DNA of 64,000 nucleotides. Origin: Eledone cirrhosa (lineage: Eukaryota). Below the pieces are notes generated by a model. That model did no database searches. It saw only the letters and a program-made list of their open reading frames with translations, and was not told where the DNA came from. Positions 3,510-57,283 of the stretch are shown piece by piece (position 1 is the stretch's first letter; each line of letters begins with the position of its first letter). Made by a program: the position numbers and the translations under genes. The stretch spans positions 39,060,001-39,124,000 of the forward strand of contig OZ024756.1 in NCBI GenBank assembly GCA_964016885.1. The letters are read 5' to 3'.

Positions 3510-3902
<393 letters not shown>

Positions 3903-10316: not shown

Positions 10317-10632
<316 letters not shown>

Positions 10633-12016: not shown

Positions 12017-12647
12017 GTACACACGCACATTATATATATATATATAAAGAGAGAGAGAGAGAGAGAAAGGGGGGAAGAAGTAGAAACATGTGCGCACGTG
12101 TTAGCATGTATATGTGTAAAGTTTGTGTATGATGTAGGATGTTATTGAGTCTGGCGTGTAATATAACTGTGTGTAGTTCGATGTGCTTCAGTTATTGACA
12201 GCTACCATAAATTGCCCGGGATAAAATAACCAATAACCAATCACATCACTTGTCTAGCTGGTCTACCGCTGACGGTTAGACATTTTCAGTGTCAGATCTA
12301 TTTTTAGAATCTGTGTAAAGCGTAACTTTCCATATAAGGAAAAATACTGATTGAGAATGGTAGAAAAATTAGTGAAAGACACGAGCAGCAATTTGATCAG
12401 GGGCATCGATTTGTATCGATAATAGTGAGGAGGAGCTTAGTGAAGAATTTTTCACAGAGCAGTGGTTAGAAAAATCGAAGATGAAGGCTCATTAGCATAT
12501 CTGGGTTAGAGAAATTGTGAGAACCAGTGATAGGATACTAGAGGAAAGTATGAATGGAACACGTGTTGATAAAGTAGATAGGTCCTGGCCTAGTTTGAAC
12601 TAAATACGTAAATATAGTGTAGAATATATATATATATATATATATAT

Positions 12648-13063
12648 GCAGAGGTTATATTTAATTTGTTGGGATACAACAAGCTAAATATTTTTATAAC
12701 TGATTATTGGAGTAAATATACAATATATTAACAAATGGAAACTATATTTATAAAACCATATTTATTTCAATATACATATTTCAAGGGCCACCAAAGCAAA
12801 CTATGGTGCGCTTTCATCAGATAAAATATAATATAGGTTAGTTTTATAAATAAATATTGACATACCCTTAAAAAATGCAACCATCCAGGAGATTCCAACC
12901 AGAATGGTTGCATTTTTTAAGGGTATGTCAATATTTATTTATAAAACTAACCTATATTATATTTTATCTGATGAAAGCGCACCATAGTTTGCTTTGGTGG
13001 CCCCTGAAATATGTATATTGAAATAAATATGGTTTTATAAATATAGTTTCCATTTGTTAATAT

Positions 13064-13067
<4 letters not shown>
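12648..13067. mobile_element. Family C palindromic element with two oppositely oriented HHRs
   Basis: ~164-bp near-perfect inverted arms 12721-12884 / 12904-13067, flanked by (TA)n. Confidence 0.85.
12960..13025 (+). ncRNA. Hammerhead ribozyme (family C); mirror copy on - at ~12763-12828
   Basis: TATTTTAT-CTGATGA-..CACCA..TGGTG..-GAAA-TATGTA-TA^TTGAAATA; first stem I pair mismatched. Confidence 0.65.
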
Positions 13068-13116
<49 letters not shown>

Positions 13117-13118
<2 letters not shown>

Positions 13119-13273
13119 CGAAGGAAATGTGGTAAGGAACCAGGTGGACCATAACGCACCAAAGTACTCAATACTTGAGGTAGTAGAGTGGATAATAGGA
13201 ACCAGTAAGACCCCGACAGCTGAGCTCAAGCCGTTTCGACGGCTTGAGCTCAGCTGTCGGGGTCTTACTGGTT

Positions 13274-13278
<5 letters not shown>
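13117..13278. mobile_element. Family F element ending in a perfect ~40-bp hairpin with TTCG loop
   Basis: AGGAACCAGTAAGACCCCGACAGCTGAGCTCAAGCCGT-TTCG-reverse complement; relatives at 33081, 35456, 62593. Confidence 0.8.
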
Positions 13279-27188: not shown

Positions 27189-27756
<568 letters not shown>

Positions 27757-30243: not shown

Positions 30244-30626
30244 AGTTTTAATATAGATGAGATTCTACAGGACTAGAACTGTTTCATTCATTAGAAATCA
30301 TCAGGAATATAACACACTGCCCGAACTGCATGCACAAGAACTTTGCAACATTCAAACACTTTAAGCCAGTGTTAAAGCCCGATGGCTAAAAACGACCTCC
30401 CCCTATTGGCCCCTGTACCTCCTCCCCACCCTACCCCCACCCCTCCTCAACCTGAAATACGGCCACTATAGTTATATTCCTGATGATGGTTATATTCCTG
30501 ATGATTTCTAATGAATGAAACAGTTCTAGTCCTGTAGAATCTCATCTATATTAAAACTGTTATACTCTGCTATGTATTGAGTACCTTACTTACTGTGGTT
30601 ACCTCCGATTCAACCCGGAATAACGT
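30244..30626. mobile_element. Family E element with inverted HHR arms around an unrelated spacer
   Basis: 30244-30313 is the reverse complement of 30489-30558; 3' tail to 30626; (TA)n flanks. Confidence 0.8.
30494..30540 (+). ncRNA. Hammerhead ribozyme (family E); mirror copy on - at 30262-30308
   Basis: ATTC-CTGATGA-TTTC-TAAT-GAAT-GAAACAG-TTCTAGTC-CTGTA^GAAT. Confidence 0.8.
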
Positions 30627-33870: not shown

Positions 33871-34377
33871 CGATATTAAATAAATGGAAACTATATTTAT
33901 AAAACCATATTTATTTCATTATATATATTTCAGGGATATCATATTAAAAATATGGTATGCCTTCATCAGACAAAATACAATATAAACAGTCTTATAAATA
34001 AACAGTCTTATAAATAAACAGTCTTATAAACAGTCTTATAAATAAACAGTCTTATAAATAAACAGTCTTATAAATAGATAGATTTGACATACCTTACACT
34101 TCAACTTCCATTTAAAAAGTTGATTTGGAAGTTGAAGTGTAAGGTATGTCAAATCTATCTATTTATAAGACTGTTTATATTGTATTTTGTCTGATGAAGG
34201 CATACCATATTTTTAATATGATATCCCTGAAATATATATAATGAAATAAATATGGTTTTATAAATATAGTTTCCATTTATTTAATATCGTAAATATACTC
34301 CAAATACTTGTTGAGTGCTTTTATATCAGTTATAAATATTTACTCGTTGTAACCCAACAATTTAAATAAAACTTTGC
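33871..34377. mobile_element. Family C palindromic element; HHRs at 33912-33977 (-) and 34183-34248 (+)
   Basis: TATTTTGT-CTGATGA-AGG..ATACCATATT..AATATGATAT..CCT-GAAA-TATATA-TA^ATGAAATA; left arm has a 17-bp tandem expansion. Confidence 0.85.
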
Positions 34378-36903: not shown

Positions 36904-36950
36904 AAGTGACGAAACATAAGTCAATTGCATGAACTCATAATCCTTTATTT

Positions 36951-37006
36951 ACTGCTATATATATTTCGATGATAGCCATTGAATGGCTATGACCTCATCA
37001 GGCAGT
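36951..37006 (-). ncRNA. Hammerhead ribozyme (family I)
   Basis: Reverse complement ACTGC-CTGATGA-GGTC-ATAGCCA-TTCAA-TGGCTAT-CATC-GAAA-TATATA-TA^GCAGT. Confidence 0.85.
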
Positions 37007-37225
37007 TAGTCAGTTCTTAGATATGCCAGCTCTGTGTTCATAGCGTTGATGGTATCAGAGCCTTGGAACATATATATATATATATATATATAGTATTAAG
37101 GATACTATTTATGGTTATGTATATAATAAAACCTTTTATAGTTATATATATTTTAAACTCTAAATAGTGAAAGACAGTAATTCATTACTATCTTATTACC
37201 AGTAAGATAAATAGCTCAATGTAAT

Positions 37226-52699: not shown

Positions 52700-52940
52700 T
52701 ACGTTCTGAATTCAAATCCCGCCGAAGTTAGCTTTGCCTTTCATCCTTACGGGAGGGGAGGGGAGGGGGTCAATAAAATAAAATACCAGTAATCACTGGG
52801 GTCGATTTAATCGACTTTCCACCTCCCCCTGAAAGTGCTAGCTTTGCGTCTAAATCAGAATTACATTATTCAACGTAAGGTCAGACACCATGCTTTGCAG
52901 CATAGAGTTATGGCCCTTTATGATATGAGTTCAAATCCCG
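52700..52940 (+). mobile_element. Two SINE type I fragments, the second truncated at the satellite
   Basis: Core at 52705-52860; head 52875-52940 ends GAGTTCAAATCCCG. Confidence 0.75.
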
Positions 52941-54406
52941 AAAGTATAAGGCAGTATAAGACAGTATAAGACAGTATAAGGCAGTATAAGGAAGTATAAG
53001 ACAGTATAAGGCAGTATAAGACAGTATAAGACAGTATAAGGAAGTATAAGACAGTATAAGGAAGTATAAGACAGTATAAGAAAGTATAAGAAAGTATAAG
53101 GCAGTATAAGACAGTATAAGGCAGTATAAGAAAGTATAAGACAGTATAAGAAAGTATAAGACAGTATAAGGCAGTATAAGAAAGTATAAGAGAGTATAAG
53201 ACAGTATTAGGAAGTATAAGACAGCATAAGACAGTATAAGACAGTATCAGGAACTATAAGACAGTATAAGACAGTATAAGACAGTATAAGGCAGTATAAG
53301 ACAGTATAAGACAGTATAAGACAGTATAAGGAAGTATAAGACAGTATAAGACAGTATAAGACAGTATAAGACAGTATTAAGAAGTATAAGACAGTATAAG
53401 ACAGTATAAGGCAGTATAAGACAGTATAAAGCAGTATAAGAAAGTATAAGAGAGTATAAGACAGCATAAGACAGTATAAGACAGTATAAGGAAGTATAAG
53501 AAAGTATAAGACAGTATAAGACAGTATAAGGCAGTATAAGAAAGTATAAGACAGTATAAGGCAGTATAAGACAGTATAAGACAGTATAAGACAGTATAAG
53601 GCAGTATAAGAAAGTATAAGACAGTATAAGAAAGTATAAGACAGTATAAGACAGTATAAGGCAGTATAAGACAGTATAAGGCAGTATAAGACAGTATAAG
53701 ACAGTATAAGGAAGTATAATACAGTATAAGACAGTATAAGACAGTATAAGGCAGTATAAGAAAGTATAAGACAGTATAAGACAGTATAAGACAGTATAAG
53801 GCAGTATAAGACAGTATAAGGCAGTATAAGAAAGTATAAGACAGTATAAGACAGTATAAGGAAGTATAAGACAGTATAAGGCAGTATAAGATAGTATAAG
53901 GAAGTATAAGAAAGTATAAGACAGTATAAGACAGTATAAGACAGTATAAGGAAGTATAATACAGTATAAGACAGTATAAGACAGTATAAGGCAGTATAAG
54001 AAACTATAAGACAGTATAAGACAATATAAGACAGTATAAGGCAGTATAAGACAGTATAAGGCAGTATAAGAAAGTATAAGACAGTATAAGACAGTATAAG
54101 ACAGTATAAGGAAGTATAAGACAGTATAAGGCAGTATAAGATAGTATAAGGAAGTATAAGAAAGTATAAGACAGTATAAGACAGTATAAGACAGTATAAG
54201 ACAGTATTAGGAAGTATAAGACAGTATAAGACAGTATAAGGCAGTATAAGACAGTATAAGGAAGTATAAGAAAGTATAAGACAGTATAAGACAGTATAAG
54301 GCAGTATAAGACAGTATAAGGAAGTATAAGACAGTATAAGACAGTATAAGGAAGTATAAGAAAGTATAAGACAGTATAAGACAGTATAAGACAGTATAAG
54401 AAAGTA
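52941..54406. repeat. 10-bp satellite (ACAGTATAAG)n, ~146 units
   Basis: Phase perfectly kept; variants mainly AC/GC/GA/AA at the first two bases. Confidence 0.98.
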
Positions 54407-54816
54407 TGATAGATATTTTACACAATGTAAAAGTGACGAATGTCACGTAGTTTATTAGCTGTTTGTAGAATTCTTGGGCTTATTGTGTGAAGACTTTTCA
54501 TTTCTTTGATTCTTTGCGTAAATTACTCTCTTCATCTATTACTTTCTTTTAACATTCTTCCATCTCTTCATTACCAAAATATAACCTTCCATTACTTCAA
54601 ATACCAGACTGAAAGTTATGGTTTATGGATGATTTCCATTCTTATTTTTATAATGATTCAGACTAAAAGGTCAAAATACAAAGAAATTTGTTTTGTGAGA
54701 TTTTTTCTTTTTTTTTTCTCTTTGCGTATAAATGTGTAAAGTTTGGGAGGGAATTGGTCGAGTATACATGGCCCCAAGTCTTTTGGCAGTTTTCCAATAT
54801 ATACACGCACTAAGCA

Positions 54817-56750: not shown

Positions 56751-57043
56751 TATATATATATATATATATAAAGGATATATATGTATATGTATATATATGT
56801 ATACTTAACATGCATTTCAACCCTTCTTTCTAACAACCTCTTTAGCTAAATACCAACATCTTTTTCCAACCCTTCATAGTTTACTCAATTCTTGCCCACT
56901 TGCAATCTTACACCTCCACCTCCTCACCGAAAGCTACCATTACCACATTGAGAGAGAGACAGAGAGAGAGAGGATATCCAGGTAAAACTTGAACAATTAA
57001 GGTCTCATTCCTGGATACGTCAATATTTATAAAACAAGCTCTG

Positions 57044-57104
57044 TATTTTATCTGATGAAAGCGTACCAAAGTTTTGGTACCCTTGAAATATATATAATAG
57101 AATA
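57044..57104 (+). ncRNA. Hammerhead ribozyme (family C, diverged subfamily) in element ~57010-57240
   Basis: TATTTTAT-CTGATGA-AAG-C-GTACCAAA..TTTGGTAC-C-CTT-GAAA-TATATA-TA^ATAGAATA. Confidence 0.82.
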
Positions 57105-57237
57105 AATATGGTTTTATAAATATAGTTTCCATTTATTTAATATCATTGATATTATACTCCAGAAAACTGTCGAGTGCTTTGAATCTGTTATAAATATATA
57201 TATTTGTTGAATTACCAACAAATTAAATATCCCTTTG

Positions 57238-57283
<46 letters not shown>

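Follow-up and report, generated by a model that had tools for sequence, protein, structure and literature searches.

What kind of sequence is a near-perfect palindrome that carries a hammerhead ribozyme motif on either strand, and what has formed it? This question is raised by positions 12648 to 13067 of the window, by which we mean the entire stretch analysed here: 64,000 nucleotides of Eledone cirrhosa DNA, AT-rich and dense in microsatellites. A previous sequence-only reading had placed the locus among four that bear divergent copies of one hammerhead family (family C), and it took their compensatory stem II changes as a sign that the fold was selected for in the source elements. With regard to the fold this was sound, but the source itself was missed, a Penelope-like retrotransposon (PLE) whose insertion process yields the palindromes. 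Judged from sequence comparisons, the focal palindrome in all likelihood consists of head-to-head, 5'-truncated terminal repeats of this high-copy element in a (TA)n target, probably laid down in one insertion, with reverse transcription primed from both ends of the cut DNA; both of its hammerhead motifs are expected to be passengers without activity. The locus is organised as follows.

12624-12647: (TA)12, left-hand portion of the microsatellite target
12648-12884, minus strand: long, tail-bearing arm, a 5'-truncated pseudo-LTR copy that runs to the long end and has lost 18 nt of its tail by deletion
12762-12829, minus strand: type I hammerhead motif with a cut predicted after 12771, mismatched as U.U at pair 2.1-1.1
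12883-12884: head-to-head junction, a 2-nt microhomology common to both arms
12883-13067, plus strand: short arm, from +4 of the conserved CACTATCC motif to 50 nt past the cut site
12959-13026, plus strand: type I hammerhead motif with a cut predicted after 13017, mismatched as U.U at 2.1-1.1 and as A.C at 10.2-11.2
13068-13117: (TA)25, right-hand portion of the microsatellite target

The inverted arms of 164 nt each differ by one mismatched base and enclose a 19-nt loop, and the extra tail is present on the left arm only. With such incomplete arms, the earlier description of two loci as full palindromes is too generous, and inverted duplications exist at three of the four loci rather than at two. 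It is correct, for a read-through transcript, that the RNA made from either strand contains a hammerhead together with its antisense. A different repeat (13119-13275), with a long inverted repeat of its own and a very high sequencing-contig depth, follows the focal palindrome directly within the same TA run. Six family C motifs are found at the four window loci (cores at 12820(-)/12968(+), 27426(+), 33969(-)/34191(+) and 57052(+)), and the family is represented beyond the focal palindrome by the following features.

27248-27612: second head-to-head insertion; short arm (minus strand) with the ribozyme deleted, long arm (plus strand) from +1 of the start motif (27331), hammerhead at 27417-27483
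33871-34377: third head-to-head insertion; short arm (minus strand) to 34128 with tandem micro-duplications, long arm (plus strand) from 34126, identical hammerheads at 33911-33978 and 34182-34249
56975-57238, plus strand: solo pseudo-LTR that begins at the start motif (TATCC) and extends to the long end; in its hammerhead (57043-57105), helices I and II are fully paired
10430-10597: fifth family fragment, without ribozyme; tail and 5' leader (minus strand) joined to an inverted tail (plus strand), between TA runs

The left arm of the second insertion lost its ribozyme through a deletion between TATTTATAAA repeats. A tblastn search of the 64-kb window for the family protein was empty.

The motif reads as a type I hammerhead with an 8-bp helix I, CUGAUGA, helix II, GAAA, a 2-bp helix III and a predicted cut after AUA; in predicted folds, a distal 13-bp helix extends helix I. 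The helix II sequences of the four loci, which differ and still pair, are as the sequence-only reading wrote them, but the helix extends beyond the stem noted then: it comprises 3 bp, a near-invariant C.C mismatch (27/30) and another 6-7 bp. At all four loci, CTGATGA, GAAA, the TA-rich stem III (TAT(A/G)TATA) and the AUA site are indeed kept, with A at H17 after AU. Helix III is built from eight self-complementary bases (ATATATAT, or ATATGTAT with G.U pairs) and combines 2 bp with a palindrome. At pair 10.1-11.1, the usual G-C is present in 5 of the 34 motifs aligned (see below), the remainder having A-U (18), G.U (9) or other combinations (2).

Cervera and De la Pena (2014; PMC4209133) described minimal type I hammerheads of metazoan PLEs that are located in pseudo-LTRs and combine a long helix II with a short helix III, palindromic for activity as a dimer; their study also reports many consensus families with covariation, and opposite-strand pairs 100-700 bp apart in Schistosoma. 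The Eledone motif shares all of these traits: pseudo-LTR location, long helix II, short palindromic helix III, covariation and opposite-strand pairs. It departs from the hammerheads described there in having mostly A-U or G.U instead of G-C at 10.1-11.1, in lacking a bulged base after A9, in the fixed C.C mismatch of helix II, and in an 8-bp helix I that is followed by a further distal helix. With two motif copies as queries, no Rfam hammerhead model matched at E<=10, and no hammerhead was among the 150 matches listed of 238 for the window, which held only microsatellite-driven miRNA noise; a hammerhead variant with A-U at 10.1-11.1 and a fixed C.C mismatch is one that Rfam misses. The monomer folds of 3 of 5 copies are no more stable than shuffles (z -0.1 to -0.7), and the ribozyme of the source elements likely cuts multimeric RNA as a dimer, by way of its palindromic helix III, or with the help of protein. 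Since published PLE hammerheads of the same build are inactive as monomers (PMC4209133) or dependent on the protein of the element (PMC11167929), cleavage of 57044-57104 alone, the assay once proposed as a check, would be an unfair test of the earlier reading.

The motif pattern has 42,233 exact matches in the 3.0-Gb genome and none in a reversed control, and it is therefore not a product of chance; copies of the focal subfamily are 98-99% identical. Elsewhere in the genome, the same ribozyme flanks uninterrupted frames that encode a reverse transcriptase (RT) together with a GIY-YIG endonuclease at the C-terminus. This linkage was first seen in two copies (L067 and L072), the second of which displays the full layout of ribozyme repeat, tail, an ATG 193 nt past the cut site, ORF, AT-rich 3' region and second repeat. 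A protein search of the genome yielded 15,373 candidates, 150 of which were scored, and 12 long-frame copies (635-781 aa) were examined. A family C ribozyme lies within 6 kb of the frame, in direct or inverted orientation, in 11 of these 12 copies, and several frames are uninterrupted at 743 aa. With its pseudo-LTRs, inverted 5'-truncated copy and one-end tail, the family has the structure of a PLE; inverted truncated copies with a one-sided tail are a PLE hallmark (PMC8557442). Rather than forming a stand-alone family, the hammerhead motif belongs to the pseudo-LTR of a PLE whose protein carries Hydra-clade motifs.

Members of the Hydra clade, as described by Craig et al. (2021; PMC8557442), possess a single ORF for an RT with a C-terminal GIY-YIG domain, a DKT motif, a CxCX5C linker, no CCHH motif, CxxC and CxH around a conserved E and N, a (TA)n target and a hammerhead near the 3' end. 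The Eledone family matches this description in ORF layout, motif set, target and ribozyme. By motif reading, YxDD is found in 9/12 frames and a GIY/YIG-like stretch in 10/12; the CxCX5C linker is present in 11/12; CxxC precedes the conserved E in 11/12, and CxH follows the conserved N in 10/12. DKT (not DKG) occurs in 12/12 frames, although it was a selection criterion here; it was first seen, unselected, in L072. The CCHH motif is absent: in the 10 frames matched, the stretch that separates the GIY half from the YIG half contains only one Cys. Differences are found as well: the N-terminus carries R(I/L)RWR in 8/12 frames, by motif reading a variant of the Hydra RWK; the tail is about 91 nt as against 30-40; and the repeat-to-repeat unit, with its long AT-rich 3' region, measures 3691-4234 nt in 5 copies and so exceeds the <3 kb that is typical of, though not defining for, Hydra elements. 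The Eledone family numbers tens of thousands of copies, and Hydra-type elements can be very abundant. It is distinct from Hydra-1_oBim, since the hammerhead sequence listed for the latter differs (PMC8557442 supplement).

The neighbours of the family protein in the ESM Atlas are HTH_animal, RVT_1 and GIY-YIG clusters, including a GIY-YIG/RVT_1/HTH cluster at 0.97, and the best named protein matches, at 39% identity, come from Argonauta hians. Neither the three full frames examined nor L067 contain a domain that Pfam recognises, and a PDB sequence search with the family ORF gave no match. Placement in the Hydra clade would thus be by protein motifs rather than by a tree. An identity with Naiad or Nematis was dropped, as the endonuclease is C-terminal and the motifs are those of Hydra. 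Likewise, an RT frame adjoining a family C palindrome (L012:2201-3175; YSRYVDD, weak RVT_1) was rejected as part of the family because it lies beyond the TA run and differs in sequence; it probably represents another PLE clade. A 4-kb tandem array on another contig (C4:316577000-316592500; L064, L065) consists of four units, each with a truncated copy of the element, and reflects later amplification at the DNA level.

Fold selection for PLE hammerheads in general has been reported before (PMC4209133). For the Eledone family, 133 distinct contexts were condensed to 36 cluster representatives, and 30 of these were aligned with 4 further window motifs to give the set of 34. In this alignment, 93.3% of the cells are paired, and 8 of the 9 helix II pairs have changed on both sides; the covariation score of 0.430 compares with 0.237 for shuffles (0/500) and <=0.130 for slid partners, and RNAalifold recovered helix II only. 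The four window loci by themselves contain both-sided changes at three positions (A-U/G-C at 10.2-11.2, G-C/A-U at position 5 of helix II and C-G/U-A at position 6). As related copies inflate covariation counts, a tree was built from the flanks only, for 30 of the 36 representatives and with two related families left out; on this weakly resolved tree from 120 nt of AT-rich flank, both partners change together on 16 branches, compared with 5.9 +/- 2.3 for permuted columns (P=1.5e-4). The check on genomic copies that the sequence-only reading had called for thus finds helix II to covary across subfamilies. One-sided changes retain G.U over A.C by 21 to 1 in helix I and by 18 to 9 in helix II (39 vs 10 cells in total). 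Since the earlier sets had been chosen by their core pattern, a motif-independent set of 39 repeats was collected from 32 ORF-selected loci, with the anchor placed outside the ribozyme. The core is intact in 34 of these 39 repeats; the 5 losses are each private to one copy, and no core change occurs at the level of a subfamily. Variation shared between the repeats affects 1/12 core columns (two deletions and one substitution), as compared with 11/32 in helix II and 31/74 upstream.

One could argue that the compensatory changes reflect DNA-level hairpin correction, or a few inherited events, rather than selection on an RNA fold. Nearly all of the changes are transitions, the covariation cells count sequences rather than events, the tree was derived from 120 nt of AT-rich flank, and the stretch 3' of the ribozyme is highly conserved as well. 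We nevertheless hold this explanation to be very unlikely in view of the excess of partner-column co-changes over permuted columns and the preference for G.U over A.C in both helices; moreover, the C.C mismatch in helix II has never been corrected, and a related family has exchanged helix III ATATATAT for ATGCGCAT while keeping it a palindrome. These comparisons lend good support to the view, first proposed from the four loci, that the fold has been under selection in the source elements: the signal surpasses shuffles, slid controls and tree-aware column permutation, and the core is kept while helix II varies.

Why the family so often forms palindromes is a separate matter. Among the first 100 motif matches listed, neighbours within 5 kb comprise 13 head-to-head, 4 tail-to-tail and 7 same-strand pairs, with 2.7 expected in total; the head-to-head pairs hold 26 of the 100 matches, and their partners are identical or nearly so, as judged by eye, in 11/13 cases vs 0/4 for the tail-to-tail pairs. 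When 191 arms were placed relative to the cut site, 81 ended at +50 (short) and 81 at about +141 (long), 21 ran into the ORF and 8 ended elsewhere. A run of TA, AC or GT dinucleotides follows 158 of the 162 short or long ends, which fits insertion into (TA)n, and in the element itself each of the two end points is followed by a TA-like stretch. The two kinds of arm are combined by a near-fixed rule. Of 49 head-to-head events in a first set, in which duplicates were merged, somewhat too strongly, and to which 3 more events with an outer end outside the locus can be added, 45 pair a long with a short arm, 1 is short+short, none is long+long and 3 are unclassified (45/46 classifiable); the short+short case (L113) belongs to a divergent subfamily, and its left arm visibly continues into tail-like sequence. 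A second set, made up of 30 out of 56 loci chosen by the junction only and sharing one locus with the first, gave 26 long+short, 1 short+short (L178, unexplained), no long+long and 3 unclassified events (26/27 classifiable).

The 5' boundary is equally sharp. In each of the 30 junction loci, the start of the direct arm falls within -3 to +4 of a CACTA(T/C)C motif, the search pattern setting the inner limit of +4 and leaving room upstream; an arm starts at the CACTA motif in all four window loci, and the motif is invariant across subfamilies (0/5 columns variable). By eye, several subfamilies contain a TATA-like sequence about 30 nt upstream of it. We infer that this initiator-like motif marks the transcription start. 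Two subfamilies (L025, L125, L140-L143) carry the octamer ATTTGCAT, which we take to be a POU-factor site, about 45 nt upstream of the CACTA motif. In other PLEs, a rotifer pseudo-LTR has a TATA and a TCACT initiator-like motif (PMC3846280), and the Drosophila repeat contains a promoter (PMC2377424).

The reading that we prefer for the palindromes would run as follows. The endonuclease would nick both strands of the (TA)n target, and a protein dimer on one uncut element RNA would prime two cDNAs, one from either DNA end, in every case with one start at the short site and one at the long; when priming takes place in the upstream repeat, the cDNA would run off at the RNA's 5' end, that is, at the transcription start, and so leave a repeat-only insert, and microhomology of 1-3 nt would join the two cDNAs. 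Such a process would give rise to head-to-head repeats, the one-sided tail and solo ribozyme repeats, with thousands of these insertions being dsRNA-forming palindromes. We regard this scheme in its entirety, protein dimer and invariable site pairing included, as about evenly balanced between being right and being wrong. The focal arms have 2 nt in common at their junction (12883-12884). Most inverted arms read through the cut site, from which we conclude that the templates were uncut or religated. In a search for inserts derived from cleaved RNA, the inverted arms of 56 junctions, inspected by eye, stop at scattered positions (about +8 to -25 relative to the cut site) and do not clearly accumulate at +1, a distribution that microhomology blurs. 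A biochemical precedent is the purified PLE of the anole, which cuts and extends both strands, starts at two internal sites that bound the tail and uses uncut RNA; its ribozyme is protein-assisted and dispensable for insertion in vitro (PMC11167929). Against the proposed scheme stands that the anole start sites show neither a strand difference nor target homology, unlike the strict pairing and the TA-like sites of the Eledone family.

A palindrome of the same element could also be formed when one strand turns back and copies itself, and fold-back self-priming of this type has been proposed, on an antisense template, for rotifer Penelopes (PMC3846280). The arms are nearly identical, with a median of 1 difference in about 119 nt (25 rows), small hairpins are present in the junction region of head-to-head insertions, and the two focal arms have a rare variant in common, all of which speak for self-copying. 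A fold-back copy must, however, be a subset of the first arm. Of 42 pairs, 27, with the focal palindrome among them, have a short arm that extends further 5' than the arm with the tail; the long arm contains the short one in 8, as self-copying would have it, and 7 are ties. In 17/30 of the junction-selected loci, one arm has the tail and the other has further 5' sequence. With the tail on one arm and the greater 5' reach on the other in 27/42 pairs, neither arm is a copy of the other, and simple fold-back cannot apply where each arm holds sequence that the other lacks. The long+short pairing, the sequence often private to each arm and the 5' pile-up taken together favour two cDNAs primed from both cut DNA ends, and we consider fold-back self-priming improbable.

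A third explanation makes the double-ribozyme palindrome itself the selected unit, be it as a fold-back mobile element or as a source of dsRNA and small RNAs that silences the family. Head-to-head pairs are common among the matches listed (26/100, as given above), the read-through RNA of the focal locus would be a 164-bp duplex, and small RNAs from PLEs have been reported in rotifers (PMC3846280). Yet the junctions differ from locus to locus, which argues that palindromes form anew and are not copied as a unit; the ribozyme is missing from many inverted arms, and the same geometry brackets full-length elements. We accordingly judge selection of the palindrome to be decidedly unlikely, less so by a hair than the DNA-level account of the covariation, and nothing indicates selection on, or a function of, the focal palindrome itself. 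Small RNAs made from the palindromes as a by-product are possible and need no selection. A MITE or fold-back DNA transposon was rejected as well, given that junctions and arm lengths vary between loci and that the sequence belongs to an RT element.

Under the preferred reading of two-end priming, the focal ribozymes are passengers. Both contain U.U at 2.1-1.1, normally U-A, a variant present in 54 genomic copies as compared with 27,948 that have the usual base; in three other palindromes it is confined to one arm. Its occurrence in both focal arms suggests that they derive from a single template or source locus, but one arm may also have been converted later by the other. The predicted fold energy of the whole palindrome is -266.5 kcal/mol vs -6.5 for a single constrained ribozyme, and in a read-through transcript of either strand the antisense arm would be made first. 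As the rare mismatch lies beside the cut site, the antisense arm would be transcribed first and the hairpin energy dwarfs that of the ribozyme fold, the focal hammerheads are predicted to be silent and are probably inert at this locus. The read-through RNA of the palindrome could serve as a substrate for Dicer or ADAR.

The head-to-head arrangement, opposite-strand hammerhead pairs and covarying stems are already known; Penelope-13_HM, for instance, has an inverted 5' copy with a hammerhead on each strand (PMC8557442 supplement). The strict long+short rule, the start-bounded 5' end and this particular family were not found in the literature searched, which leaves Repbase, Dfam and subscription papers outside its scope. 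An annotation of octopus repeats lists 31 recently active Penelope-like families in a text whose accessible part does not mention ribozymes (PMC13282606). With Anolis Poseidon (Frangieh et al. 2024, PMC11167929), the Eledone family, as read from its sequence, would share two RT start sites that bound the tail, the use of both target strands and the uncut RNA template; the Poseidon sites are not homologous to the target and show no strand difference, whereas the Eledone sites are TA-like and would be used once each per head-to-head insertion. Non-LTR retrozymes (bioRxiv 10.64898/2026.07.22.740005; PMC7229834) resemble the Eledone repeats in their type I hammerheads, which are related to those of PLE pseudo-LTRs, and in the lack of coding capacity at the locus. 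They form head-to-tail tandem arrays, in contrast to the Eledone repeats, which are solo or head-to-head and traceable to a coding element: same-strand neighbours closer than 500 bp account for 3 of 99 intervals among the 100 matches listed, and the window loci are solo or head-to-head, not arrays of the retrozyme type. The bioRxiv study (10.64898/2026.07.22.740005) deals with how PLE repeats and retrozymes are linked.

How PLEs form their inverted repeats is named as an open question by Craig et al. (PMC8557442), and the near-fixed long+short pairing suggests how they likely build them. With its motif present in more than 42,000 copies, several of its ORFs uninterrupted and its boundaries sharp (two 3' ends, one 5' end), the family provides a large natural dataset and a concrete prediction for in vitro work.

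The window and the loci collected contain other hammerhead-like families. A family related to the present one, with helix III ATGCGCAT in place of ATATATAT, is found at L016 (region 1000-1354, as a head-to-head palindrome), L013, L017, L088 and L148. Another, at 36947-37010 (-) and 56106 (-), combines a helix II of 3 bp, C.C and 7-8 bp with the ATATATAT helix III; its helix I is GC-rich, and N7 varies (T, A, G) among the copies. A third family (27148 (-), 48330 (+), 60278 (-)) has a short helix II and a palindromic AACGTT helix III, and a further head-to-head family with a hammerhead-like core, duplicated in one copy, is present at 30304 (-) and 30480/30498 (+). The GC-rich hammerhead-like motif at 3589 (+), with a long helix II and a possibly paired helix III, may be competent as a monomer. 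Short perfect palindromes centred on CTGAAGA/TCTTCAG (19569, 24417/24424) are possibly head-to-head remnants of further families, and a long array of 10-bp tandem repeats occupies about 52820-54500.
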